This document shows positions 811 to 15,916 of a stretch of 64,000 nt of DNA, one piece after another. Where the stretch lies: assembly GCA_048884965.1 (NCBI GenBank), contig JBHLQH010000006.1:1-64000 (forward strand), given 5' to 3'. The stretch is from Candidatus Thorarchaeota archaeon. GTDB taxonomy: Archaea > Asgardarchaeota > Thorarchaeia > Thorarchaeales > Thorarchaeaceae. Both the position numbers and the translations under genes were made by a program. Each line of letters opens with the position of its first letter. The first letter of the stretch is position 1. The notes under the pieces were generated by a model that did no database searches, was not told the origin of the DNA, and was given only the letters and a program-made list of their open reading frames with translations.

Positions 811-1268
811 ATCTGGTCCTCGATATGAACTCACGGTTTCTTCTACCCAATGAGCACATGTTAGATTACACATGGCTGGGAGGCGCTGTCGCTGGCCTCA
901 GAGTCGTGCGTCTACGAGATGCTGATTGGAAATGGGCTCCTTTCATCGTTGATATTATGGACACTCTTGAGATGGTGGATGATATCAAAGAGATACCCCC
1001 TGGAGAAGAGCCTGAAGTTGGATCAGTTCTTGACTCACTTGGCGGTTACGTGAGTATTGCTGGTGTCGTTCGTCCTGAGGGACTCTACTTTCCAGTCCCA
1101 CGAGAGGCGGCAACCAAGGTCATCGATCAAATCCCAGGGATTCCATATACGTATCATGCAGATGGCTGGATGCTGATCCCTCGAGAGGCGCTGGAGTCGT
1201 TCTCGTGCTTAGTACCATTGAGAGGACCATTAGAAACCTATCTACAGGAGGATTCGAATCATGACTGA
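807..1268 (+). CDS. Hypothetical protein (operon gene 2)
   Basis: 153-aa ORF with GGAGGAG SD upstream; overlaps both neighbours. Confidence 0.8.
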   Translation: MNLVLDMNSRFLLPNEHMLDYTWLGGAVAGLRVVRLRDADWKWAPFIVDIMDTLEMVDDIKEIPPGEEPEVGSVLDSLGGYVSIAGVVRPEGLYFPVPREAATKVIDQIPGIPYTYHADGWMLIPREALESFSCLVPLRGPLETYLQEDSNHD

Positions 1269-2325
1269 ATTAGAAGCTGTTAGTGGCGTTGGACCTGCAG
1301 CAGCCAAGAAATTGAGAGAAGTATATGTCACCACTGCTGAGCTCCTTGCAGTTCAAAATCCTGTGGAGCTTCAAGATAAGACCAAACTTGGAGAAGGCAC
1401 CGTGATCAAGTTGGTCAAGAACGCACGAATCCTTGTCGGCAAGTTTGGTTTCAAATCTGGTCTTGACGTGGAAAAGGAAATGGAGACCAAGCCTCGATTG
1501 AAATCTGGTCTACCAAAATTAGATGAGGCGTTACTTGGAGGACTTGAGGAAGGATCCATCCTAGAATTCTATGGACCCGCGCGTGGAGGCAAGACCCAAT
1601 GGTGTTCCTACTTTGCAGTACGATCACAGCTACCAATCGAAGAAGGTGGGCTTGGTGGAAGAGTACTATGGTTGGACAGCGAGTCTTCCTTCAAACCTTG
1701 GGTGATTAGAGCCAATGCGCTCAGATGGGGAATGGACCCTGATGTGACTCTTGGGAATATTGGACATGCTGAGGTCATTCTCTCTGGTCAGATTACTGAG
1801 ATCTTTGAAACTATTCCTCAATTATGTGCCGAGCAGAACTACAAGTTCGTTGTACTCGATTCTTTCACAGGGTTGTTTAGAGCTGAGTACACCGGTCTAG
1901 ATCAACTCAAGCTAAGACAGCAAGATATGAACAGCATCCTCAATCAAATGCGTAGGACTGCAGCAGCAACAGGGGCAGTATTTGCGTATACTAACCAAGT
2001 CATGGCCAACATTAGTTCCTACGGCGGGAATCCAAACGCGCCAGTGGGAGGACATGTTCTCTCACATGCTAGTGACTATAGGTTCTATGTCCGGAGAATC
2101 AAGGATGATGAGCGAAGGATAACGCTTCAAGATAACGCTGGTGTTCCAGAATTCGATATTAGTACAAAGATAGGCTGGGGTGGATTCTACGAGGATTCGA
2201 AAGCAAAGAAGGACTCCGAGTCAATCATTCTCGATAAGCTAGGCAAGACAGGGGACTCAGGCTTTGATGAAGCAAAGACCGAGATCGATGAGGAAGTAAC
2301 AGAAGCGGAGGTAGAAGCCGTTTGA
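1261..2325 (+). CDS. radA: RadA/Rad51-family recombinase (divergent paralog)
   Basis: N-terminal HhH (VSGVGPAAAKKL), LDEALLGG, Walker A GPARGGKT, Walker B VVLDS, FRAEY..RQQ, TNQV, PVGGHVLSH; acidic C-terminal tail. Confidence 0.9.
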   Translation: MTELEAVSGVGPAAAKKLREVYVTTAELLAVQNPVELQDKTKLGEGTVIKLVKNARILVGKFGFKSGLDVEKEMETKPRLKSGLPKLDEALLGGLEEGSILEFYGPARGGKTQWCSYFAVRSQLPIEEGGLGGRVLWLDSESSFKPWVIRANALRWGMDPDVTLGNIGHAEVILSGQITEIFETIPQLCAEQNYKFVVLDSFTGLFRAEYTGLDQLKLRQQDMNSILNQMRRTAAATGAVFAYTNQVMANISSYGGNPNAPVGGHVLSHASDYRFYVRRIKDDERRITLQDNAGVPEFDISTKIGWGGFYEDSKAKKDSESIILDKLGKTGDSGFDEAKTEIDEEVTEAEVEAV

Positions 2326-2765: not shown

Positions 2766-3383
2766 GTGTCATCCAGCTCTCGCTATATTCAGATTCCCCA
2801 TGACACTCCTAATAGAAGCTCAATTGCCCTTGTGAATCTCATCATGAGACATACGACCACACGACTGACGGTTATTCAGATGGCTGATCACGAGCCTGAT
2901 CCGGAGCTCTTCGTTGTGACATCCGTGTTCTGGCGTGATACTGATCGACCTCTACTTGCACAACTACCAAAGATTCTCTCTTACCTTGAGACTATGAGAG
3001 GGACTCGAGGAGTACCAAGCAAAGTCTATCTTGATAGTGATGAGGGTCTCCAACTATACATTCCAACTTCAACAAGAGCATCAGAGATTCCTGCTGCGTC
3101 AAAGGACGCTGTAAAATTCCTGCGAACTCTGATCGATTCGACTTGTGAATTTGTCCATACTACTGCAAAAGAGGTAGAAGAGACCTTCTGGTCCATCGCC
3201 ATGAAACGAGGATATAGTCCAGAGATAGTTGATCGGATAGCTACTGCTGCAAAAGGGTACACTTCCTCGTCCAATGTGCAGAGCTTCAACGACCTCTTGC
3301 AACGTTACTTCTCTATTAGATTTAGGATTCATACTGCTGAGTCGACTTTACATTTGGAGGATATGAATTGGCAGAGAGCATAG
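2766..3383 (+). CDS. Hypothetical protein (operon gene 5)
   Basis: 205-aa ORF, GTG start with GGAGGA SD, abuts upstream stop. Confidence 0.75.
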   Translation: MSSSSRYIQIPHDTPNRSSIALVNLIMRHTTTRLTVIQMADHEPDPELFVVTSVFWRDTDRPLLAQLPKILSYLETMRGTRGVPSKVYLDSDEGLQLYIPTSTRASEIPAASKDAVKFLRTLIDSTCEFVHTTAKEVEETFWSIAMKRGYSPEIVDRIATAAKGYTSSSNVQSFNDLLQRYFSIRFRIHTAESTLHLEDMNWQRA

Positions 3384-5332
3384 TAGACCCGTTGTCATGG
3401 TTCCCATATGAGCCTCGTCCCCAACAGGACAAGGCAGTGGTCCTAGCAGCTAGGACCTTCAATGAGAGAACCGTGGGTCTACTATCTGCTGATTGTGGAG
3501 TCGGGAAGACTATTGCCTCACTCTCTGGGTATCTTGCGGTAAGAGGGTCTGATCCCGACTCTCGGCTCTTTGTCCTGACTCGCACACATTCACAATCCAA
3601 AGTTTTCGAAGAAGAGCTAGAGGTCTTAAAATCGAGCGTTCCTCAGAGTGATATTCCTTTGACTGCTACAAGTATGGTGTCTCGAATCCATGTGTGTCCA
3701 ATCCGCCATCGGATGGATACTGATTCATCAATGGGATTCATGCGTGGGTGTGCCATGCTAATACGATCGGGTCGATGTGCCTACTACTGGAATTTCTACA
3801 AGCGTCAGGGTGATGAAGGAACTCCGATAATCAGGGAAAGCGCACGAGCCATCGTGACAGATCTCCTAGATGGCGGAGTTGTAAATCGAGAAAAAGTAGA
3901 ATCTCTTGGGGAGGATGGTGGTATCTGTCCCTATGAAGCTCTGAGATGGTGTGCCAGGAAGAGTCGAGTGGTTATTGGTCCCTACTCCTATCTCTTCAAA
4001 GAACGTATCCGAACAGCTCTTCTTTCGAGTCTCGGACAGCATTTGGCAGATGCTGATCTTCTCATCGATGAAGCACATAATCTTCCTGAGCATGTCTTGT
4101 CATCTGAAGGAGCAATCCTTGCAGGTGAGGATTTGCAATGGCTACGGGATAACAAATCCACTGTTCGGAAGGAAACTGGAGTAAGCTGGGTTGGAGAGGC
4201 TATCGACTTCCTTTGGGAGACTCTGATGGTCGCATTGGACAAGCTGAGTATAAAGAAGAATGAAGTTGTCTTGAACAAATGGCAAGTACTTCCTAGGTTT
4301 GTAGATCCTGCTCTCATTCATATACTCATGGAGAAGACCCTCATTCCCACTGGGGATGATAGCATCCCAACTGAGACTCCCTTGGACCGATTGATAGAAT
4401 TCCTGTATGCAGGACTTCGTTCTCGAGAGAGCGATGATTGGCATATAACAGCGGAGCTTGCACCGCGATGGACGACAGAAGTTCGTATCTCTGATGGTTC
4501 ACTCAGAATTCGTCCATTGAATGCTGCGGGTTTGGTGGCTCCAGTTCTCCGTGGTGCACGCGCGGCTCTTCTTATGTCTGGCACGTTCCGACCAACACAA
4601 CTCTACGCAGGTTTAATGGGTGTCAAAGGTGCTCTTTCAGAGGACCTTGGTAGCCCGTATCCGAAGGCTTCCCGCCTTGTTCTTCTTGATCGCGAGATCT
4701 CAACAAAATACACCAATCGGACTCCAACTCTTTGGCGTGCAATTGCTGAACGTATTGAAACTGCATTAGTGGCTACTCCTGCAGAGAAGACTGCGCTAAT
4801 AGCATTCTCCAGCTATGAGGTCATGGAACAGGTACTTAGTTACAATATCGATTGTGGTTTTCGAGAGCGTTTGGTTGAAGATAGAGATGCACGGATAGAG
4901 GACCTCAAGGAACAAGTTGATGAAGGACCAAAAGCTGTTTTCCTCGTATATGGGGGGAAGTTCAGCGAGGGTGTTGACTTGGTCGCTGCTGGTAGATCAC
5001 AAGTGGATCTCATAATTGGAGTTGGGATTCCCTTTAGCCCTCCCACAAGTTATCAGAAATCTCTACAAGAATGGTACGAAAGGAGATTCGGGGAAGGTGC
5101 AGGTTATTATTACTCATCCGTGATTCCTTCGGTGCGTAAAGTAGTCCAGCTAGTAGGACGATTACGAAGGTCTCCTGAGGATCGGGGTGTTGTTATTTTA
5201 CTTGATTTACGATTCGAGAAATTCGTCTCAATGTTCGGGGACGATATTGTGTCAGACCTCTGGCCTTACAGAGGTATAGATGAAATGAGGGAGGCGATTT
5301 CAAGCTTCCTAGAAATGCGGGGTGGTAGATGA
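3368..5332 (+). CDS. XPD/Rad3/DinG-family Fe-S SF2 DNA helicase
   Basis: Q motif YEPRPQQ, Walker A ADCGVGKT, RTHSQ, four Fe-S cysteines (VCPI, RGC, GRCAYY, GICPY), DEAH, MSGT, SEGVD, QLVGRLRRSPEDRG. Confidence 0.92.
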   Translation: MAESIVDPLSWFPYEPRPQQDKAVVLAARTFNERTVGLLSADCGVGKTIASLSGYLAVRGSDPDSRLFVLTRTHSQSKVFEEELEVLKSSVPQSDIPLTATSMVSRIHVCPIRHRMDTDSSMGFMRGCAMLIRSGRCAYYWNFYKRQGDEGTPIIRESARAIVTDLLDGGVVNREKVESLGEDGGICPYEALRWCARKSRVVIGPYSYLFKERIRTALLSSLGQHLADADLLIDEAHNLPEHVLSSEGAILAGEDLQWLRDNKSTVRKETGVSWVGEAIDFLWETLMVALDKLSIKKNEVVLNKWQVLPRFVDPALIHILMEKTLIPTGDDSIPTETPLDRLIEFLYAGLRSRESDDWHITAELAPRWTTEVRISDGSLRIRPLNAAGLVAPVLRGARAALLMSGTFRPTQLYAGLMGVKGALSEDLGSPYPKASRLVLLDREISTKYTNRTPTLWRAIAERIETALVATPAEKTALIAFSSYEVMEQVLSYNIDCGFRERLVEDRDARIEDLKEQVDEGPKAVFLVYGGKFSEGVDLVAAGRSQVDLIIGVGIPFSPPTSYQKSLQEWYERRFGEGAGYYYSSVIPSVRKVVQLVGRLRRSPEDRGVVILLDLRFEKFVSMFGDDIVSDLWPYRGIDEMREAISSFLEMRGGR

Positions 5333-6393: not shown

Positions 6394-8730
6394 ATGGCAA
6401 AAGGTCGAGGGTATGTACTTGGTTCAGAACCTCCTCAGGATCCAATGGCTGAAATGAACAGAACTACCTATTCAGTAACGAGCACTACAGAAATCAAGTG
6501 GAATGATAGGGAAGTCCGAGAATCGTGGACTCAGGCAATTGCGATTGCAATTACATCTTTCATTCTTGTCTTCTTTGCCCCTCAACTTATGATAGCTGTT
6601 TCGCTTCTTGTAGGTATTGGATTCTATGTGTTCTCCAGCCTAATGAAACGCCAGGAAGTGCTTGACCCCCAGAGTGGATGGACTGAGCGACCTCAACCTG
6701 ATTTTGATCTCGTAGAAGAGGAGAAGTTCCTCAGATACCCAAGAGATGAGAAGTACTCTTTGACCGGAATTGAGCTAATGGCTGCCGCTCCGAAACTACC
6801 TGGAAATTTGGCGGCATTGATAAGGGCATTGCCCACCTCGGATGGTTTCTCTCTCTCAGTCACGCTTCGCCTTGGTGATGAGGGCAAAATCATTGAGGAT
6901 AGGAATGTTTCAAGTTCTATTGAAGCGTATCTACGAACTAGATCAAAAGGCGAACTTGAAACCTATATGGATTTCAGATCTGGTCTTTGGATTGCCAAGG
7001 TCAACTACTTTGGATTGGTCCGGGACGAAACAGGTGTTCGATTCCATGAGTCTTCTGTGAAAGGTTCAATTCCCTCTAAGGGTTGGAAGCGAATCAAGCC
7101 TTCAGACATGATGACGCGTTTGAAGGAATATCATGGTGGACAATCCCGCCCAGCATACTATGCGGTTGGACAAGAGCTATCAGAGTGGCTCGTACAGCTA
7201 AGATCTGAACTTGCCAATGAAGTTGGTACGAACGTTCCTGGACAGTTTGTTGTGGATATCAGAAGTCGTCCTGCAGATTTAGTACTCGGCAACATCCTAA
7301 ATCCCGACACTCTTCAGGTAGGGCCAACAACCGGTCTCTCCTTTGAGGATATTTCGAATGGAGTGCTAATGTGTGGAGGAACTCGTCATGGGCGAAGAGA
7401 TCTACTTGCGTTACTCGCGAAATCCATTGTCGATGCTGGTAAACGTGTGATGGTACTCAGTTCTGATCCCGAAGCTCTTGCACTAGTAAACCTTCATGAT
7501 AGCGGAATTGGGTTAACATTAGGTAAGGACTTCATTCTGAATCCAATTGATGCAGAGGACGTTCACAGAACAGTCTATGTTCCCAAGCTCCTGAGAGCGC
7601 TAGAAACACTGGCCGATAAGTCATTGACTTCAGCGGCAGATTTGGAAGTAGCACTCGGGCGAGCAGTAGCGCTCCCACACTCTACAGTTGCAGATGTAAA
7701 ATTCGAACCTGATGCAGATGTGATGACAGATGATGAGATTGTAAAGGCAAACATGCATCCTGTAAAACTGTCACTTTGGGGTTTGGAGGGTCTCCGGAAG
7801 CTGTATGAAGGATCTGGCGCAAGAGCATTCTATGGTACACAGACCACCTCGATGTCATCCATCGCTTCATTGCCACTTAGTGTGCTCATCACGAATCTTC
7901 GTGATATCCCTCTAGACATCTTCGCATTCGATCTATTAATGATGAAGCTATCAGGCATGAAACACGATAAGGATCTTGTTATCATCATTGATGATCCCGA
8001 CAGTCTACGTGTTGCCAATAGCAGTTACTCTCGAAGATCACTTTGGACAGACTCCCTCATCAAGGAGTTATCAGAGGTCGCATCTGTTATAGTGAGTATA
8101 GATCAACCACATATGCTCTCATCAGGTGTCAAGAACGAGCTGAGTTCTTGTGTCTCGCTTAGGCTAAGAGACGAGAAGGATATTGCCTCTGTTAGCACGA
8201 GACTTGCATTGAGTGTAATTGGATCAGGTCTTCATAGTAAGGCAAGATGGTCTGCTCGAGAATCCTCATTCCTTCGAACAATGGATGACGGAATAGCATT
8301 ACTTGTTCATAATGAGGTAGAAACAGCTCAACCTATCAAGTTGCACGCTACTCCCGAGTTGCGAAGTCCATCGAATGATGTCCTGCAGGAACGAATCGCA
8401 AGAAGTCTCAAACCTGAAAGCACTTCCAAAACACTTCCAACAGCAAATCTTCTATCTCTCAGCTCAACACGAGATGGTGACCTTCCACTGAAGATACTGA
8501 AACTAATCGAGCGATATGAACCTCTGACTGAAGAGGCAATAAGAAGATTCATTCAAGCTTCTGGTAGTGATGGAGATGTTGAGGGCATAATAATTCGTCT
8601 GAAAGAATCAAGCTTGATTCTGGAGGGTCATGAGTCTCATAGCGGTGTATCATACAAGAATTATCGGTTGACGATGAAGGGAAATGTTGCATTACGAAAG
8701 GCGACAAAAGAGGTGACAGTACCAGAATGA
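6394..8730 (+). CDS. Membrane-anchored VirB4/HerA/FtsK-like P-loop protein with degenerate Walker motifs and C-terminal wHTH
   Basis: Two N-terminal TMs; VLMCGGTRHGRR at Walker A position; KRVMVLSSDPE; FILNPID; LVIIIDDP at Walker B; IDQPHMLSSGVKNELSSCVSLRL; terminal wHTH ending YRLTMKG. Confidence 0.65.
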   Translation: MAKGRGYVLGSEPPQDPMAEMNRTTYSVTSTTEIKWNDREVRESWTQAIAIAITSFILVFFAPQLMIAVSLLVGIGFYVFSSLMKRQEVLDPQSGWTERPQPDFDLVEEEKFLRYPRDEKYSLTGIELMAAAPKLPGNLAALIRALPTSDGFSLSVTLRLGDEGKIIEDRNVSSSIEAYLRTRSKGELETYMDFRSGLWIAKVNYFGLVRDETGVRFHESSVKGSIPSKGWKRIKPSDMMTRLKEYHGGQSRPAYYAVGQELSEWLVQLRSELANEVGTNVPGQFVVDIRSRPADLVLGNILNPDTLQVGPTTGLSFEDISNGVLMCGGTRHGRRDLLALLAKSIVDAGKRVMVLSSDPEALALVNLHDSGIGLTLGKDFILNPIDAEDVHRTVYVPKLLRALETLADKSLTSAADLEVALGRAVALPHSTVADVKFEPDADVMTDDEIVKANMHPVKLSLWGLEGLRKLYEGSGARAFYGTQTTSMSSIASLPLSVLITNLRDIPLDIFAFDLLMMKLSGMKHDKDLVIIIDDPDSLRVANSSYSRRSLWTDSLIKELSEVASVIVSIDQPHMLSSGVKNELSSCVSLRLRDEKDIASVSTRLALSVIGSGLHSKARWSARESSFLRTMDDGIALLVHNEVETAQPIKLHATPELRSPSNDVLQERIARSLKPESTSKTLPTANLLSLSSTRDGDLPLKILKLIERYEPLTEEAIRRFIQASGSDGDVEGIIIRLKESSLILEGHESHSGVSYKNYRLTMKGNVALRKATKEVTVPE

Positions 8731-10922
8731 CCGCCACTCTTGATATTCCTTCTCAAGTTCATAGGATTCTGGAGCAGGTAGGCCTAGAGCCAAGAGGTGT
8801 ACAATCCGAGTCTATTGAGAAAGGTCTCCTCGATGGTGGTAGTATTCTGGTGTGTAGCCCCACAGGGTCTGGGAAGACATTGGTTGGTGAGATTGCTTTG
8901 TTGCGCTCGGTGACATCGGGGAAACGAGGTCTCTATCTCACCCCCTTGAGAGCATTGGCAGATCAGATTTTCGATACACTCAAAGAACGCTACACACCAC
9001 TGGGCATCAGAATTGGTATCTCTACAGGAGATTTCCAGACAGACGGCTCAGCTCTTGAGGAGTATGACATCATTGTATCTACCTATGAGAGAGCTGATTC
9101 ACTTCTAAGGCATAAATCCCCATGGATGGAACAAGTAGCTACATTAGTTGTGGATGAGATACAGACAATTTCTGAAGGGAACCGTGGTGCCCGATTAGAG
9201 TCTGTCATCATACGTTTTAAGCGAATAGTTGAGAATCTACAGATAATTGCCCTTTCTGCTACGATAGGGTTCCCAGAACAGCTTGCTGACTGGTTAGGTT
9301 GCAGACTGGTTGAGTCTATTGACCGACCAGTCCCACTACTATGCAATGTCATAGCGAAACCAAACAAAGAGGCAGCTGTCCTGAAGTATGTTATGACGAC
9401 AATTCAAAAAGATGGGCAAGTGCTAGTATTCCATAGGACTCGGAGAGAGGCTGAAGCAGAAGCTCGGCGGCTAGCAGAACATGTGGGAAAGCAACTCACT
9501 CAGAATGAGCGAGAGTATCTCGTTTCCGAGCTTGATTCTATTGAGCATTGGAATGCAAATATCCCAAAGGATTTGCGCTCTCTGCTTCATAATGGGATTG
9601 CATATCACCATGCAGGTCTTGGAGTCGGAGCGAGAAAGCTGGTCGAACATCTATTCAAGACTGGTAGAATAAGAGCAATATCTGCAACTACAACCTTATC
9701 ATCAGGAATGAATCTTCCAGCTCGTACTGTAGTAATTGCAAATGCTCGCTCTCCAATCGACTATAGACATATCATGCCGCCAAATCAAATGCACCAGATG
9801 TTAGGACGAGCTGGTCGGCCCGGTCTTGATTCTCGTGGTTATGGGGTTATTATTGCTGATAGTCGCGGACAGGCAGATGATATCATTCAGAAATCGTTTC
9901 TAAAACGAAGAGATGACACTCTGAACAAGGATATCCTCGAACCAAAATATGAGGCAGTGACCAGTGCATTCAGATCACCTGATGTCCTAGAGGAACAGCT
10001 GCTCGTGGCTCTTGATATGCTAAATGAAGCTAGCTTGGAAGAAATAGAGAATGGGATTTTTGGTGAAACTTACTTACTACACCAAGCAGTTCGTAACACC
10101 TATTCTCCAATGAGATTGATTTACTTAGATGCCATAGATGCTATGTCTGCTTTGGAATGTCACGCTCTTTCGGACACAATCCGCGCTGCCAGAGGTGGTG
10201 TCTTAGGAACGGTCAGAATTCGGGAGGTAAATGACTCTGTAATCGGAGGCATGGTTGCACAAAAAGGAGGTAACAATGCAACTTGCCGGTTTTCCACTCG
10301 CACCAGGCGAAGTGGAACTATTGAAGGGCCGATGTGCTCCTGTGGCCGCCCTATCGATGGGTCCGGCATCCTCTGCCCTCATCTTGTTACTCTAGGAATG
10401 ATGGCGTCAAAGGAGCATTCAGAAGTCGCCGACTATATTATTCCTCTCGCCTTAGGAGAATCAAGTCCGTCAGGTAGTCTGATTAGACTTCAACTAATAG
10501 AAGGCGCAGAAGATGGTCGGGTCAAGATAACACGTCTCGGACGACTCGTTTCCAGATTGTATCTACGTCCTGGTACAGCAAGAGAGCTTCTTGCTATGGT
10601 CCCTTTTGTTAAGGATACAGTGCAGCTAGTTTCGATGCTGAAGCATCTGGTGTCTCTTGAAAGCAATCAGACTATTGATGATACATTTGAGATGATGATA
10701 GGATTAGCAGCATCAACGAGAATGCATATGGTGGATATGGCTGAGGAACTCAATCTTTCTATTGGCGATCTCTCGTCACTATTGGAACGTTCTCGGTGGC
10801 TACTCTACTCAATTGCAGCGATTGCACGAGAAGGGAATCTGAGCTTTGTTTCCGAGCATGCTCAGCAACTATGGGAAGATATCGATTCACGGTTTTCAGG
10901 TGATGACAATGGCAATAACTGA
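8727..10922 (+). CDS. Hel308/Ski2-like SF2 helicase with inserted SWIM zinc finger
   Basis: SPTGSGKT, PLRALA, TYER, DEIQ, LSAT, HHAGL, TTTLSSGMNLPA, QMLGRAGRPG; CSC-x10-CPH; TRLGRLVSRLYL. Confidence 0.9.
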   Translation: MTATLDIPSQVHRILEQVGLEPRGVQSESIEKGLLDGGSILVCSPTGSGKTLVGEIALLRSVTSGKRGLYLTPLRALADQIFDTLKERYTPLGIRIGISTGDFQTDGSALEEYDIIVSTYERADSLLRHKSPWMEQVATLVVDEIQTISEGNRGARLESVIIRFKRIVENLQIIALSATIGFPEQLADWLGCRLVESIDRPVPLLCNVIAKPNKEAAVLKYVMTTIQKDGQVLVFHRTRREAEAEARRLAEHVGKQLTQNEREYLVSELDSIEHWNANIPKDLRSLLHNGIAYHHAGLGVGARKLVEHLFKTGRIRAISATTTLSSGMNLPARTVVIANARSPIDYRHIMPPNQMHQMLGRAGRPGLDSRGYGVIIADSRGQADDIIQKSFLKRRDDTLNKDILEPKYEAVTSAFRSPDVLEEQLLVALDMLNEASLEEIENGIFGETYLLHQAVRNTYSPMRLIYLDAIDAMSALECHALSDTIRAARGGVLGTVRIREVNDSVIGGMVAQKGGNNATCRFSTRTRRSGTIEGPMCSCGRPIDGSGILCPHLVTLGMMASKEHSEVADYIIPLALGESSPSGSLIRLQLIEGAEDGRVKITRLGRLVSRLYLRPGTARELLAMVPFVKDTVQLVSMLKHLVSLESNQTIDDTFEMMIGLAASTRMHMVDMAEELNLSIGDLSSLLERSRWLLYSIAAIAREGNLSFVSEHAQQLWEDIDSRFSGDDNGNN

Positions 10923-12561
10923 AGGAACTGCAGTAAAGGATGAACAAGAAGAAAAGGTGGCCTCTGAAGAAACTGAGGATGTCACAACACCTACAAGAGA
11001 CCATGACTACGATGTGCTGAGAGCACTAATAGCAACAGGACATCACGTTTGCGAATATCCAAATGGATTGGTACTTGGTGTACATATTGAGGGTATCCCA
11101 GGTCGACGTGGAGTACATGTGGATTCTGTCTATGTACTTGACTTGCGTCGTGCGTCTTTTGGAACTGCACGTCTTGCAATGCAGGCAGCCGTTTTGGAAA
11201 CGATAAATCGCGATATGTGTTCTGTATTGCAGGATATTGAAATGGATTACACTTTGACCACTGTGTCAAAACGGACAACGAAGGGAAAACTCATTCTTCC
11301 CATGCTCAAAGCAAATCAGAGTCACCCTGGAACGATGGTACATAACACACGAACAGTCTATGTTGTCACTGGGAATGAACGTCCAAAACTGGATCTTTCG
11401 TGGCTTACTGAGCCAAGCAGAGTCCTCCATGCAGACGATTTCCTCCTTGCAAGACGCTCTGATATGAGGTCATTCCTCTCTGAGATGCAAAATAGGGTTC
11501 TTCTGGATAAATGGGAACTTCTTGGCGATAGTATTAGGCAAGGCTGGTTTGGATTATTATCGTTGGTTTTTGCATCAATTAGTGCGTTCTCACTAATAGC
11601 TGCGCTGATGGTTCCAGAGGGAATTATTCTCATTCCAACACTTGCGACTGCATTAGGTGGGATTTTGGGTTTGTGGATGATTGATCGTTCAAGGAAGAAT
11701 TTGGATGAGTTCAATGTACTATTACGTGAGGAGGAGGCAAAGACCAACAGAGTTGGTGATGGCCATCGTATTGACGCTAGTATCTCTGAGAACGAGGAGA
11801 AGCTCAAATTACAGAGAGATTTAGGATTCGTAATATCTCCTCTTCTGGCATCTGTCGCTGGATCTATTAGCATTGGGGATTATGATGATGCCGTTTCATC
11901 AGCATGCTTGGTCCTTGATGAATGCGTTCGGTTCTCTCAAGCTGATGGGATTCCAATGGGCGATGAAGGTCTTGCCAAGTTCATCGGTCTTTTTGAAAGT
12001 TTCAATGCTGAATTCGATGAAGCAGAACTGTCGATTTGCTATGCCGGCTTGACCAATCACCTAGTTTCACCTTTGGGTGAGGAGGAGATTCTAAGGCAGT
12101 GTACAGTATTGTCAGATTCACTCTATAATGTTGGCATTCTGAAACCTACAGTAAAGGATAGAATCGACGATCTAATGAACCAGAGAGCGTTGAAAGAGAA
12201 TCTCAGGTATCTTGATCACGCAATTGATGTAGATAATGAATCTCATGAAGAAGGAGGTGACGGAGATGATGACTCTTGGTTCACTGATGAAATGCTCCAA
12301 GAGAATTTAGCTTCAAAAGAAGAATTCGATTCTATTCCAGTTTTAATCGCATACACTCATCCAGATGATTTGGACGAAGACGATATGGAGCAGACCGCAA
12401 AGCAGCTTGATGATCTGTCTGTTGCTGCAACTCAAACCTCTCCTCCTGATGATGTTGAGATGACTGCCAGTGATGTAGTCAATTCCGCTCATTCCAACAA
12501 GGGTTCGAGAAATTTGGATGACAAAGAGGATTCATTGGAGGATGATATTCCTGCTCGATAA
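10909..12561 (+). CDS. Membrane protein with central 2-TM hairpin and acidic C-terminal tail
   Basis: ATG 10909 after AGGTGA SD (track starts at 10846); two hydrophobic helices; D/E-rich last ~110 aa. Confidence 0.75.
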   Translation: MAITEGTAVKDEQEEKVASEETEDVTTPTRDHDYDVLRALIATGHHVCEYPNGLVLGVHIEGIPGRRGVHVDSVYVLDLRRASFGTARLAMQAAVLETINRDMCSVLQDIEMDYTLTTVSKRTTKGKLILPMLKANQSHPGTMVHNTRTVYVVTGNERPKLDLSWLTEPSRVLHADDFLLARRSDMRSFLSEMQNRVLLDKWELLGDSIRQGWFGLLSLVFASISAFSLIAALMVPEGIILIPTLATALGGILGLWMIDRSRKNLDEFNVLLREEEAKTNRVGDGHRIDASISENEEKLKLQRDLGFVISPLLASVAGSISIGDYDDAVSSACLVLDECVRFSQADGIPMGDEGLAKFIGLFESFNAEFDEAELSICYAGLTNHLVSPLGEEEILRQCTVLSDSLYNVGILKPTVKDRIDDLMNQRALKENLRYLDHAIDVDNESHEEGGDGDDDSWFTDEMLQENLASKEEFDSIPVLIAYTHPDDLDEDDMEQTAKQLDDLSVAATQTSPPDDVEMTASDVVNSAHSNKGSRNLDDKEDSLEDDIPAR

Positions 12562-13219
12562 GCAGTTTATTGACACAATCATGAAATCGGGTGGTATGCT
12601 ACATGTTTCTGGAGCGGCAGGTTCAGGAAAAACGCTCTTCGCTTCCATCCTTGCTTCTATCCTCTCGGAGAAAGGATATGTAGATTGGATTTCTACGGAT
12701 GGTAAGGCTGGATTCGTCAAACATATTCGAAGCAATCTCGAACATTATGGTGGAATTTCTTCGAATATATCTGTGACTAGGGTGATGGGATATGATGAAA
12801 CTTTACAGGTAATTCTATCAATGGACCAGCGTTTGAAGGAGAACACCCGACTTATCGTAATTGATTCAATAACCAGAGTTTTGGATATGTCACGAAACGA
12901 TCCTCTACTTTGGGGTCGCACGCTATTCGAGGATGCTTTGCCCACTCTTGCTTCAATCTCAGAAGGCAGGAGAGTGCCTATTGTTCTCATAAGCGAGATT
13001 CGAGAATCACAAGGTGTTCCAAGTGCAGTCTATCATGAGAAGATCCGTAAATGGGCGAAATGGGATCTAGTCTTTGAAAGACCACATGGATTGAATCAGT
13101 CCAAGATTCTTCAGGAAGGTGGAGGAGAAACTTCTCAAATGCAGATAGGCACTCTGCAACTGAATCCTGCCGGTTGGGCTAATCTGACAATTGAAATGAT
13201 ATCGATGGAGGTGCAATAA
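12542..13219 (+). CDS. RadB/Rad51-paralog-like RecA-fold ATPase
   Basis: Walker A GAAGSGKT, WISTDG, Walker B LIVIDSI; no N-terminal HhH; start uncertain (12518/12542). Confidence 0.8.
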   Translation: MIFLLDKQFIDTIMKSGGMLHVSGAAGSGKTLFASILASILSEKGYVDWISTDGKAGFVKHIRSNLEHYGGISSNISVTRVMGYDETLQVILSMDQRLKENTRLIVIDSITRVLDMSRNDPLLWGRTLFEDALPTLASISEGRRVPIVLISEIRESQGVPSAVYHEKIRKWAKWDLVFERPHGLNQSKILQEGGGETSQMQIGTLQLNPAGWANLTIEMISMEVQ

Positions 13220-14199
13220 TGATTGGAGGAGGTATGATTGGGAAGCTGATGAAGTGGGGGATTATGGCGGGTGTAGCCCTCGTAATAGGTACTGAATTGC
13301 TTTCATCTGTTTCATGGGTAGTTGTGAGCATGAGGACAGGTGACTATCTCCCTGTTGCCATAATTTGTGGTTTCACATTGACCTTACAAAGAATATCGTC
13401 AATTCTCAAGACTGACTCAAAGCTGGTCACCATTCTTGTAGATATCCTTGCAGGAGCTTCAATGTTGTATCTATTCTTCGTTGTTCTTATCGGACTCATT
13501 CCTTTTGGTCTTGTTGTAGCTATTGGTGGAGCTGGAGCCTCTCTTCTGCTTTCTATGATAATTCGGGATCCAACATCCATGCGAGAAACTCTCAGGGATT
13601 TGGTTGAATCCGCTGAGGTATATCGTGAAGGAGGTATCTCGCTGAATGGCAATCAAGATTATGTAAGTGGGAAGTACATTGAGAAACTGAATATTTCGAT
13701 TCTCCAGATTCCACATTACTATTTCAACGATGTAGTACGTATCCTTCAGAATCGTCCCATGCTTCCTGTTGCATTATTGCATTTAGAGGATGCTGATTTC
13801 CTATTCGTCCGGCAAAGTGTTGAATTAGATTGGACACGTCAAGTGAAACGTGTATTGCAGGATGAGGGATTAACTCAAATTACTACTGCTACACCTCTTT
13901 TGAAGAAATCACTCCTATTCTTACCTCTAATGGAGGAACAGCACGGATATCCTATGTCAGAATATGCTATAGCAGCCAAGGACGAATCCATTAGCACACT
14001 TTTGGCAACGAAACCATTACGAATGGTCGTATTTCCCAGCTCATGCGGAATAAGAATCGTGGTCCGTAAAGAGAGTATTCTTGGTATTGACCTCTCTCCG
14101 ATTCCTCAACATCATCTACAGCAGATCATCTTAGGCCGAGAGGCCGAGGCAATCAAAACCATTCTTGATACTACGGAGGGAGTCATACCTGCCTATTGA
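13219..14199 (+). CDS. Membrane protein, ~4 N-terminal TM helices + soluble domain
   Basis: 326 aa; hydrophobic first ~115 residues; alternative ATG 13234 after GGAGGAGGT. Confidence 0.75.
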   Translation: MIGGGMIGKLMKWGIMAGVALVIGTELLSSVSWVVVSMRTGDYLPVAIICGFTLTLQRISSILKTDSKLVTILVDILAGASMLYLFFVVLIGLIPFGLVVAIGGAGASLLLSMIIRDPTSMRETLRDLVESAEVYREGGISLNGNQDYVSGKYIEKLNISILQIPHYYFNDVVRILQNRPMLPVALLHLEDADFLFVRQSVELDWTRQVKRVLQDEGLTQITTATPLLKKSLLFLPLMEEQHGYPMSEYAIAAKDESISTLLATKPLRMVVFPSSCGIRIVVRKESILGIDLSPIPQHHLQQIILGREAEAIKTILDTTEGVIPAY

Positions 14200-14911
14200 A
14201 ACAAAGAATCTTGATGAGATTGATGCATTTGACAAGCCGCTATTCAAACTTCATCCCCGCGTGCTTGATGCTGTCATAGGAAAGATCCTCCTTCCATCTC
14301 ATATCAGCGTCCTTCATGGAGAAGAACGCTTTCCTCTTACTGCGATTTCCCATGCTGTCATGATTGGAGCGGGCAAGAACAACAAACACGCGATCTATCT
14401 TGATTCTGGAAGTAACTTCAATCCTCAACTTATTCGAGTCCTTTCTCAGGGTGACGAAGAACATGTCCTAGATCGAATCAAGATTGCAAATCCATTGAGT
14501 CTTGCTGACCTAGAGATGATAATGGAATCAGTAGAGTCCATGGAAAATATCTCTTTGGTAGTCATTGACAGTCTCACCGGAATAATGAACATGAGTGCAG
14601 CTCCTGGAAGTAAAGAACGACAGCGGCAATTATTCAAGACATTGGAAGTACTTCGGAATATAGTACTTAGGTTGAATACTCATCTTCTGTTAACAGACCA
14701 CTCGGCCAAGAACTGGAGAACAGGTCAATCTCGTCCTGTTGGAGGAAATGTTATTGATCATGCTGTTGACAGTGTGATTCAAGTGACCACTCTTCAGGAA
14801 GTTCCTGATGCTGTACGGATAGATGTTGAACGAACTCCCATCACACCAAATCCTGGCGGTGTCATATTGAAGATTGGGCACAAAGGGATAAGGTCGATAA
14901 AATCTCCTTAG
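14165..14911 (+). CDS. RecA/RadB-fold protein with inactivated Walker A
   Basis: LDAVIG, HGEERFPLT at the P-loop position, IYLDSGSNFNP, Walker B LVVIDSL, RQRQL, RPVGGNVIDH; true start probably slightly downstream. Confidence 0.78.
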   Translation: MILRRESYLPIETKNLDEIDAFDKPLFKLHPRVLDAVIGKILLPSHISVLHGEERFPLTAISHAVMIGAGKNNKHAIYLDSGSNFNPQLIRVLSQGDEEHVLDRIKIANPLSLADLEMIMESVESMENISLVVIDSLTGIMNMSAAPGSKERQRQLFKTLEVLRNIVLRLNTHLLLTDHSAKNWRTGQSRPVGGNVIDHAVDSVIQVTTLQEVPDAVRIDVERTPITPNPGGVILKIGHKGIRSIKSP

Positions 14912-14917
14912 GAGGCT

Positions 14918-15916
14918 ATGTTGTTGGGTGTTAAGAATTGGAATGACCTAATCCCATGGAGATGGATTTCAGCGGATGAGCTCAAACCACGAGTTATCGC
15001 CATTGATGCACCAAACTATCTTACTCGCAGACATCAAGCATATGCCTATGGCACAAAGCAAAGCATTGAGCGAATTCCTACTTCTCATTTCTCAGCGTCT
15101 CTAGGAATAATCAAATCATTTCTATCAAAAGGTTTTCTTCCAGTGTTTGTTTTTGATGGCCCCCCGGAGGTGTTGAAGCGTCCTTCAAACCCCCATCTCA
15201 TCATAAAATCCTCAGAATTGTATAATCGCTACAGAAGTACGAAGAATCTGTTTGATACTCATATCGCTGAACCCCTCGCTAATAGCGCAGGGTTGTTCTG
15301 GTATTTCTCAGTTCTTCACATCAAAGAACTGTGCTCAGCGGCTGGCATTCCAGCGGTAACTGCTGCAAGCGAAGCCGAGATGACAGCAGCAGTTCTTGTT
15401 AAAGATGGGCTTGCAGGAACTACTCTCTCTAATGACGTAGATGCACTGCTATTTGGCAGTCCTCATGTGACCCGGACAATTCAACTAGGTAAGAATCTGA
15501 TTGAACGATGTTCTGCCGTGGATTTGGAATCAAACACCAAGCTCGATTTGAACAGATTACGTGATCTCGCCATTCTCTGTGGATGTGACTTTCATAATGG
15601 TGTGAAGGGAGTAGGACCCAGAAAAGGATCCGTTCTACTTCATAGATTTGGAAATCTCGAAAGAGTGTTGAAATCTAAAGCATATACCTCCTCGGAGATT
15701 GAGGAACTTCTGATTGCTCGTGAAGTATTCGAGGAACCAAGCTATATCTCCACGAAAGGTATGAATCTATCTTTATGTGCTCCAATACCTCATCAGCTGA
15801 TCGAGATTCTAGAACCTGTGCTGGGAAGAGAGCATGCAGAAACTCAAGCAAATGTCATTGTGAAACTCTGGAAGTCATTTGGAACTCATCAATCCACACT
15901 AGAACAGTGGGTGTAA
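14918..15916 (+). CDS. fen1: FEN1/XPG-family structure-specific nuclease (paralog) with PIP box
   Basis: IAIDA, FVFDG, SEAE, SNDVDALLFG, GCDF, GVKGVGP; C-terminal QSTLEQWV. Confidence 0.88.
   Translation: MLLGVKNWNDLIPWRWISADELKPRVIAIDAPNYLTRRHQAYAYGTKQSIERIPTSHFSASLGIIKSFLSKGFLPVFVFDGPPEVLKRPSNPHLIIKSSELYNRYRSTKNLFDTHIAEPLANSAGLFWYFSVLHIKELCSAAGIPAVTAASEAEMTAAVLVKDGLAGTTLSNDVDALLFGSPHVTRTIQLGKNLIERCSAVDLESNTKLDLNRLRDLAILCGCDFHNGVKGVGPRKGSVLLHRFGNLERVLKSKAYTSSEIEELLIAREVFEEPSYISTKGMNLSLCAPIPHQLIEILEPVLGREHAETQANVIVKLWKSFGTHQSTLEQWV

Follow-up and report, generated by a model that had tools for sequence, protein, structure and literature searches.

A SWIM-bearing Hel308 paralog encoded in a Thorarchaeota operon with Rad51-like genes

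The helicase gene and its motor

In this study we analysed a window of 64,000 nucleotides from Candidatus Thorarchaeota archaeon (GCA_048884965.1, contig JBHLQH010000006.1, positions 1-64,000, forward strand). The tenth gene of a 15-gene operon in this window (97 to ~15916, +; co-directional and tightly packed) is an open reading frame for a Hel308/Ski2-type helicase of 731 residues, P0001 (8727..10922, +), in which a SWIM-type module is inserted into the winged helix and domain 5 of Hel308 is missing. The ATG of P0001 shares bases with the stop codon of the gene before it (ATGA), with GAGGTGA 11 nucleotides upstream, and P0001 is, as judged from this overlap, translationally coupled to the upstream gene. 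The nearest database relatives of the protein are other Candidatus Thorarchaeota proteins.

The two motor domains, RecA1 and RecA2, occupy residues ~1-405 (8727..9941, +) and matched the Pfam families DEAD (6.7e-32) and Helicase_C (5.8e-12), while residues 5-392 matched the solved Hel308 structures 2va8 and 2p6r in a sequence search of the PDB (E 1e-69 to 1e-80). In a set of 27 orthologs with 49-79% identity to P0001, the Walker A motif SPTGSGKT (motif I; 8856-8879, +), motif II DEIQ (residues 143-146, Q146 included; 9153-9164, +), motif III SAT and motif VI QMLGRAGRPG (9795-9824, +) were invariant. An AlphaFold2 model built from the ortholog alignment had a mean predicted local distance difference test score (pLDDT) of 89.5 and a predicted template modelling score of 0.87. 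An earlier reading of this DNA, made from the sequence only (the sequence-only reading), had described a Hel308-like helicase with DEIQ as motif II and had proposed to superpose a predicted structure on archaeal Hel308. The model superposes on 2p6r_A over 565 residues (model span 5-731) with Z 33.8 and a root mean square deviation (rmsd) of 3.5 A, and on the Hel308 structures overall over 561-589 residues with Z 32-34 and rmsd 3.3-4.0 A (Foldseek E 1e-33 to 1e-35), in agreement with that description. The winged-helix domain 3 and the ratchet domain 4 pack in the model as in solved Hel308. At the RecA2/winged-helix junction, P0001 and its orthologs have an extra beta-hairpin of ~13 residues (FLKRRDDTLNKDILEP; residues 391-406, window 9897-9944, +). 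The canonical Hel308 of the same genome, P0054, is without this hairpin and has a gap there in the hhalign alignment.

Motif II of P0001 is DEIQ instead of DExH, a point against its reading as an active Hel308-type motor, though one compatible with activity as far as the sequence can tell. A Suv3-type Pfam model matched this motif (2.8e-09), and the fold of the whole protein is also close to the Brr2 cassettes (Z 30), as might be expected if P0001 were a Ski2/Brr2/Suv3-type RNA helicase that happens to lie among DNA-repair genes. Yet the best matches in both sequence and fold are the DNA helicases Hel308/Hjm, and all identifiable neighbours act on DNA; we consider an RNA helicase very improbable. 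From the helicase fold and the intact motifs, we infer that P0001 is an active ATP-driven translocase/helicase of the Hel308 family, with DNA, not RNA, as its probable substrate and the polarity of Hel308. Its place in the family is another matter. The NCBIfam model NF040935 (helicase_Hel308) matched only residues 4-392 and gave 333 bits against a cut-off of 1200, and because this score is so far under the cut-off, P0001 appears to be a member of a paralogous subfamily and not an equivalog.

The split winged helix and the missing domain 5

The winged helix of P0001 is found in two parts. The first part (residues ~413-435, EEQLLVALDMLNE; 9963..10031, +) contains a helix at 418-432 in the model and aligns by hhalign with residues 388-411 of P0054, and the second (residues ~573-614, LIEG..VKITRLGRLVSRLYL; 10443..10568, +) aligns with P0054 residues 437-480. 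Between the first winged-helix helix (EEQLLVALD) and LIEG..VKITRLGRLVSRLYL, hhalign and the models place ~137 residues (~436-572; 10032..10442, +), where P0054 has ~26. The profile alignment thus gives a net insert of ~110 residues, close to the ~100 of the sequence-only reading. The Pfam winged-helix family HTH_61 gave no score on P0001, in which the insert interrupts this domain.

The insert carries the signature CSCGRPIDGSGILCPH (10335..10382, +), that is C537-S-C539-x10-C550-P-H552, with the cysteines and the histidine as presumed zinc ligands; both the position and the pattern are exactly those given by the sequence-only reading. The spacing of n = 10 falls inside the range of 6-16 usual for SWIM domains (PMC5727457), and the pattern C.C.{6,25}C.H arose in 60 of 200,000 shuffles of P0001 (chance 3e-4). 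C537, C539, C550 and H552 were invariant in the orthologs (27/27), while the cysteines at 43, 206 and 478 varied freely. Three arginines near the motif (R499, R521 and R525) were likewise invariant or nearly so.

In the models, the insert consists of two short helices, a four-stranded sheet (494-537) and two further helices (551-575). Modelled alone, it has a core pLDDT of ~90 and shows a beta-sheet followed by a helix that bears the last two ligands. When this isolated model was aligned to 48,161 PDB representatives without pre-filtering, the top match was residues 114-214 of ZSWIM8 (Z 6.3, rmsd 3.5 A, 88 residues), and the next match reached Z 3.8. The SWIM domain of ZSWIM8 (residues 172-208; PMC13083262) lies inside the matched region. 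A shape search of the insert in the ESM Atlas returned seven rows beyond the cluster of P0001 itself. Three of them list SWIM among their families: small Pfam SWIM proteins (45% of members, template modelling (TM) score 0.63), a SWIM/SNF2_assoc cluster (32%) and a RapA-like SNF2 cluster (75%). Another three rows are bacterial SNF2 helicase clusters, and the last is without a family. The Pfam SWIM model (PF04434, gathering cut-off 19.6 bits) recognised the homologous inserts of two relatives described below, with 27.7 bits for P0184 (L054) and 21.7 bits for P0053 in the genome scan, and the SWIM motifs of both align in register with that of P0001.

Some results weigh against the assignment. Neither full-length P0001 nor its segments 400-731 and 490-600 matched the Pfam SWIM model even at E 10; a Foldseek search of the PDB with the insert alone gave nothing at E < 0.02, with ZSWIM8 at rank 29; and the ZSWIM8 match itself is modest at Z 6.3. 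A relaxed Pfam scan also gave a weak match of P0001 to metallothionein, which we set aside as spurious. The sequence-only reading would have had to yield to ligands that vary among orthologs or to an insert of another fold; the invariant ligands and the SWIM region of ZSWIM8 as top structural match leave it standing. Four separate lines of support are in accord with one another here: solved structures, predicted structures, the Pfam scores of homologous inserts and the spacing. Support for the SWIM fold is good, not overwhelming, given the modest Z. As far as computation from sequence and models reaches, the SWIM identity of the P0001 insert is established, and the module is predicted to bind zinc and to be stabilised by it.

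Past the winged helix, the ratchet domain 4 of P0001 is shortened (residues ~615-720; 10569..10886, +), as seen from hhalign and from a partial match to Pfam Helicase_dom4_arc (670-715). Its ratchet helix keeps an invariant GD (680-681) and a nearly invariant W691 in the orthologs. The protein then ends ~11 residues beyond the ratchet domain with no domain 5 after it: the hhalign alignment with P0054 runs through domain 4 and stops at residue 615 of 709, the helix-hairpin-helix (HhH) domain 5 of P0054 (Pfam HHH_5/HHH_2, 625-676) has no counterpart in P0001, and no HHH family of Pfam matched P0001. The early end without domain 5 noticed in the sequence-only reading is therefore real. Since P0001 fails to resemble Hel308 in domain 5 as well as in its NCBIfam score, it is best filed as a new subfamily.

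Three of the SWIM-bearing members that we fetched (L054, L055 and L058, the last weakly at E 0.005) keep the HhH domain 5, while in seven others it was not detected, as in P0001. Because these three keep it, the loss of domain 5 looks secondary on sequence grounds, and the SWIM insert and the loss of domain 5 are separable features. In canonical Hel308, domain 5 bends single-stranded DNA, brakes the ATPase and the helicase, and serves as annealing module and single-stranded DNA sensor, while its deletion did not significantly alter translocation through nanopores (PMC13623763). Because the canonical domain brakes and anneals, P0001 should be a translocase without a built-in brake and without an annealase. 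By analogy with the published domain-5 truncations of canonical Hel308 (PMC13623763), P0001 could be read as de-repressed; it may equally be an annealing-incompetent translocase.

Another possibility is that the SWIM insert is a nucleic-acid-binding element that widens substrate recognition by the winged helix (for example of duplex or branched DNA) and stands in for domain 5 in contacting DNA. P0001 would then be a self-sufficient helicase whose substrate preference is altered and which has no docking module. The Hel308 winged helix is indeed the substrate-recognition domain and domain 5 the single-stranded DNA sensor (PMC13623763), early work cited in PMC5727457 predicted that SWIM binds both DNA and proteins, the nearest Atlas look-alikes of the insert are SWIM modules of bacterial SNF2 DNA translocases, and the conserved arginines flank the motif. 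On the other hand, the three SWIM-bearing relatives that keep domain 5 indicate that SWIM did not arise as its replacement, Shu2's SWIM domain (Shu2 being the best-studied recombination SWIM protein) makes protein contacts (PMC5727457), and the recurrent adjacency of Rad51-like genes described below, though compatible with DNA binding, would be left unexplained. We regard a purely DNA-binding insert as somewhat unlikely.

Paralogs in the genome and relatives across Asgard archaea

The source genome has three Hel308-like genes. P0054 (709 residues, contig C7) is a canonical Hel308 with HTH_61, a full domain 4 and HHH, and P0001, on the contig of this window, has the SWIM insert and no domain 5. 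The third, P0053 (734 residues, contig C9; L005:1222-3426 (-), equal to L013:9311-11515 (-)), has a SWIM motif (CTCx14CKH) at the same place and has lost the Walker A motif and motif II. P0053 has conserved counterparts in more than 200 clusters of Thorarchaeota proteins, mostly annotated 'hypothetical protein'. It adjoins PAC2 and beta-CASP genes, and its Ranarchaeia counterpart P0062, in which the helicase motifs are still present, has the same neighbours. P0053 is probably a pseudo-helicase with a scaffold role.

The presence of two such paralogs bears on whether the SWIM insert could be a structural or oligomerisation organiser, which would hold P0001 in a homodimer or in a heterodimer with the ATPase-dead P0053, loosely like the two cassettes of Brr2. 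Thorarchaeota keep both the active and the degenerate SWIM-bearing paralog, the full P0001 model matches the Brr2 cassettes as noted above, and in ZSWIM8, the best solved match of the insert, SWIM is the 'central organizer' of a dimeric superdomain (PMC13083262). P0053, however, is encoded outside the operon, beside the PAC2 and beta-CASP genes, and in lineages such as G038 and G043 our searches found just one SWIM paralog. An organiser role of this kind seems unlikely.

Using the C-terminal half of P0001 as query, we searched 300 genomes sampled from the phylum. Strong orthologs turned up in 57 of the 76 sampled genomes of its own family and in the one sister-family genome, and weaker matches in nine further families. 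Every locus fetched from those families (12/12) encodes a Hel308-like protein of 711-845 residues with CxCx(10-20)CxH at the same position. All 27 sequences of the SWIM group, which come from at least ten Asgard families, carry the signature; four canonical Hel308 proteins and one other Ski2-like protein are without it (0/5). In a maximum-likelihood tree, a branch with 99/98 support separates all SWIM-bearing sequences from canonical Hel308. Such a split would be expected if SWIM was gained once, as far as the sequences go, with the deep order within the SWIM group not fixed by the tree. A profile of the Thorarchaeota insert, searched against 1.84 billion representatives, found 8 clusters only, all of the same family or near to it; being too lineage-specific, this profile missed the wider SWIM-Hel308 family, which came from the genome searches. 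Public records name SWIM-Hel308 proteins only 'DEAD/DEAH box helicase' or 'hypothetical protein'.

Four other genomes hold a canonical Hel308 plus a SWIM paralog. In a 100%-complete genome of another family (f9; G207 contig C21, L058:1835-4363 +, L067), the canonical query found only the form with SWIM plus HhH. The proteins of this family have 842-845 residues and carry the database names Promethearchaeota or Lokiarchaeota, and to judge from these sequences the SWIM form may be the sole Hel308 of this Loki-type lineage. While searching for canonical Hel308 we also observed that its matches in G043 (contig C22:56309-59947, -) fall in two pieces (query 2-316 and 311-696) within one frame of 1,284 residues, which suggests that the G043 protein carries an intein or another large insertion. 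Three database matches (P0228-P0230) combine Hel308 domains with intein/LAGLIDADG Pfam families.

The helicase, the SWIM insert and the absent domain 5 of the sequence-only reading stand, while the paralogy, the Asgard-wide occurrence of the insert and the members that keep domain 5 had escaped it. A 2026 review gives Hel308/HELQ the same five domains from archaea to animals (PMC13623763), and in the literature that we searched on the topics SWIM, Asgard, Hel308 and RadA, we found no description of a Ski2-like helicase with SWIM built into its winged helix. New here are the paralogy of P0001, the SWIM-bearing Hel308 in at least ten other Asgard families, and the syntenic 15-gene operon with Rad51-like genes.

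The conserved operon, a working model and known systems

Several genes around P0001 encode recombination-type proteins. Near the head of the operon lies a diverged second RadA of 354 residues (1261..2325, +) that scores ~170-171 bits with Pfam Rad51, compared with 313.6 bits for the main RadA of the cell on contig C11. It is followed by an XPD/Rad3-like helicase (3368..5332, +; Pfam DEAD_2 and Helicase_C_2, NCBIfam rad3). The gene upstream of P0001 encodes a HerA/DUF87/CedB-like protein of 778 residues (6394..8730, +). This protein has no Pfam match and is assigned from language-model features and predicted structure: its Atlas feature scores to DUF87/HerA_C/CedB clusters are 0.91-0.92, with TM scores of 0.45-0.50, and its look-alikes are HerA/DUF87/VirB4 ATPases, among them clusters that bear the name 'DNA import protein CedB'. 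The likeness gives a hint of coupling between DNA transport and recombination in the operon. The 778-residue gene is kept upstream of the helicase in L009, L010, L014 and L053, and weakly in G038.

Two candidate partners of the helicase are encoded downstream. The first, a RadB-like protein of RecA fold with 233 residues (12518..13219, +), matched NCBIfam RadB at 9.7e-10, under the cut-off of that model, and keeps Walker A GxxGSGKT and the Walker B aspartate, with G37, K38 and D116 invariant. The second, a Rad51/RadB-like protein of 248 residues (14165..14911, +), matched Pfam Rad51 (1e-10) and NCBIfam RadB (2.5e-15); its alignment consensus is without GxxxxGK[ST] and has HGxERAPLT instead. 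The last enzyme gene of the operon encodes a FEN1/XPG-like nuclease (14918..15916, +), identified by family matches and synteny. The other genes of the operon had no family match.

This arrangement is strongly conserved. The five genes downstream of the helicase, with RadB-like, membrane-type, RadB-like and FEN-like genes among those kept, follow in order at all 17 Thorarchaeota loci searched, bar one ended by a contig edge. Thorarchaeota with helicases of only ~50% identity share the 15-gene order (L009, L010, L014 and L064/L065 among the loci), and in divergent Thorarchaeota the operon keeps one chromosomal location, flanked by a GH3 gene and a gene for 2,600 residues; a sister lineage has a rearranged version. 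In G038, the closed genome of a distant Asgard family, the string reads 632-residue protein, SWIM helicase, zinc ribbon, Rad51-like protein of 268 residues, 446-residue protein, tetratricopeptide repeat protein and FEN-like protein, with a RadA gene transcribed divergently from it. Four other Asgard families (G038, G043, G004 and G018) have Rad51/RadB-like genes within ~2 kilobases of the SWIM helicase, and in G038 and G043 relatives of the 233-residue RadB-like gene adjoin it. The case for the helicase working with Rad51-type proteins is based mainly on this recurrent gene linkage.

The same conservation argues against a role in a defence or mobile-element system, with P0001 as a helicase like HamB of Hachiman or similar. 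The PADLOC models HamB and PDC-M23B matched the motor domains of P0001 (E 1e-38 to 1e-43), and the XPD-like neighbour matched type IV CRISPR DinG models. On P0001 these models cover the generic superfamily 2 (SF2) core alone, with matches that fall far short of the Hel308 ones. Among the neighbours, the PADLOC scan returned the DinG-like matches of the XPD-like gene and one weak mad8 match of a RadB-like gene (E 0.005) and nothing else, with no HamA (DUF1837) or other defence partner. Because the operon keeps its fixed position in divergent Thorarchaeota and is carried by 57 of the 76 sampled family genomes, the locus appears to be a vertically inherited core and not a defence island. With the locus conserved and the PADLOC matches generic, we rejected the defence reading, to which we would give hardly any weight.

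Taken together, we favour a model, with a probability of roughly 55%, in which P0001 is a specialised SWIM-Hel308 paralog, distinct from the general Hel308 of the cell, whose SWIM module docks it to partners encoded in the operon. In this model, the winged helix would have acquired SWIM by insertion in a common ancestor of Asgard archaea, and the HhH domain 5 would then have been lost in the lineage of the Thorarchaeota operon. The motor, the winged helix and the ratchet would thread 3'-5' along single-stranded DNA as in Hel308, with control and targeting shifted from the internal domain 5 to the SWIM module. The latter would dock the helicase on operon-encoded partners, most probably the two RadB/Rad51-like proteins, and the helicase would act in a dedicated recombination machine with the second RadA and the XPD-like, HerA/CedB-like, RadB-like and FEN-like proteins. 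The identity of the partner is the weakest step. Since Rad51-like genes recur beside the helicase, SWIM may plausibly be a built-in module for binding partners, and docking to the operon RadB-like proteins is the most likely form that this would take, by gene linkage and by analogy: Shu2 uses its SWIM domain to contact Shu1, a Rad51 paralog (PMC5727457), and HELQ has the Rad51-paralog complex BCDX2 as a binding partner (PMC13623763).

There are also points that weaken this model. The contact between SWIM and a partner is drawn from gene adjacency and analogy, and the gene neighbourhood alone cannot pick the partner among ~14 operon proteins. A SWIM domain may also serve to bind DNA or, as in ZSWIM8, simply to organise a fold, and the members that keep domain 5 make SWIM no simple replacement of it. 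A complex prediction of the C-terminal half of P0001 with both RadB-like proteins gave a score of 0.00, which bears on binding neither way.

The finding reveals a second, Asgard-wide branch of Hel308 with a zinc-finger module built into the winged helix, and one sub-branch of it has discarded domain 5 and locked its gene into an operon with Rad51-like proteins. This provides a natural experiment on the role of domain 5, be it brake, single-stranded DNA sensor or annealing gate, and on the coupling of Hel308-type motors to Rad51 paralogs. Contacts of HELQ with BCDX2 and of SWS1 with Rad51 paralogs are known in eukaryotes, where their mechanism is poorly understood. Since SWIM-Hel308 is found in the archaeal lineage closest to eukaryotes, in which such contacts exist, the family is a tractable candidate model for them. 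The appeal of the finding lies in this Asgard setting and in the parallel to HELQ, Rad51 paralogs and SWS1.

A bolder proposal, which we hold to be improbable, is that SWIM-Hel308 joins a HELQ-type motor and a Shu2/SWS1-type SWIM in one polypeptide, within one operon with stripped-down Rad51 paralogs, as an archaeal counterpart or forerunner of the eukaryotic HELQ/Rad51-paralog/SWS1 mediator network, and that in Thorarchaeota it serves a membrane-associated Ced-like machine for DNA uptake and recombination. If this were true, three elements that eukaryotes hold as separate interacting proteins would be combined in Asgard archaea.

Compared with archaeal Hel308/Hjm (PDB 2p6r, 2va8 and 2zj2) and metazoan HELQ, P0001 has the same layout of RecA1, RecA2, winged helix and ratchet, the same motifs and the ratchet tryptophan, with ~30% identity to Hel308/Hjm in the structural alignment (Z 32-34). 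Unlike Hel308, it has a winged helix split by SWIM (~110 residues), DEIQ as motif II and a shortened domain 4, is without the HhH domain 5, and shares its genome with a canonical Hel308. HELQ is functionally tied to Rad51 paralogs (PMC13623763), to which the RadB-like neighbours of P0001 form a parallel.

SWIM modules on SF2 motors have long been known from bacterial SNF2 proteins. With the SWIM domains (PF04434) of SNF2/RapA-like helicases and of ZSWIM8, the P0001 insert shares CxCxnCxH with n = 10, the sheet-helix layout and the attachment to an SF2 motor. While SWIM in SNF2 proteins is a separate module outside the motor, in P0001 it is inside the winged helix of a Ski2-like helicase. Shu2 and SWS1 (ZSWIM7) likewise place SWIM in a Rad51-paralog setting, which for P0001 is suggested by gene linkage, and the Walker A-less 248-residue RadB-like protein resembles the stripped-down, ATPase-dead Rad51 paralogs of the Shu complex. 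Shu2 and SWS1 are small stand-alone proteins without a helicase, with n = 59 in Shu2, and because neither Shu2 nor another chain of the Shu complex was among the top 50 PDB structural matches of the insert, we claim no specific likeness to them. Within Asgard archaea, P0184 of Baldrarchaeia and the Lokiarchaeia-type protein of 842 residues (L058) have SWIM at the same position in the winged helix and fall on the same side of the tree, and, unlike P0001, both keep the HhH domain 5 and DEIH as motif II.

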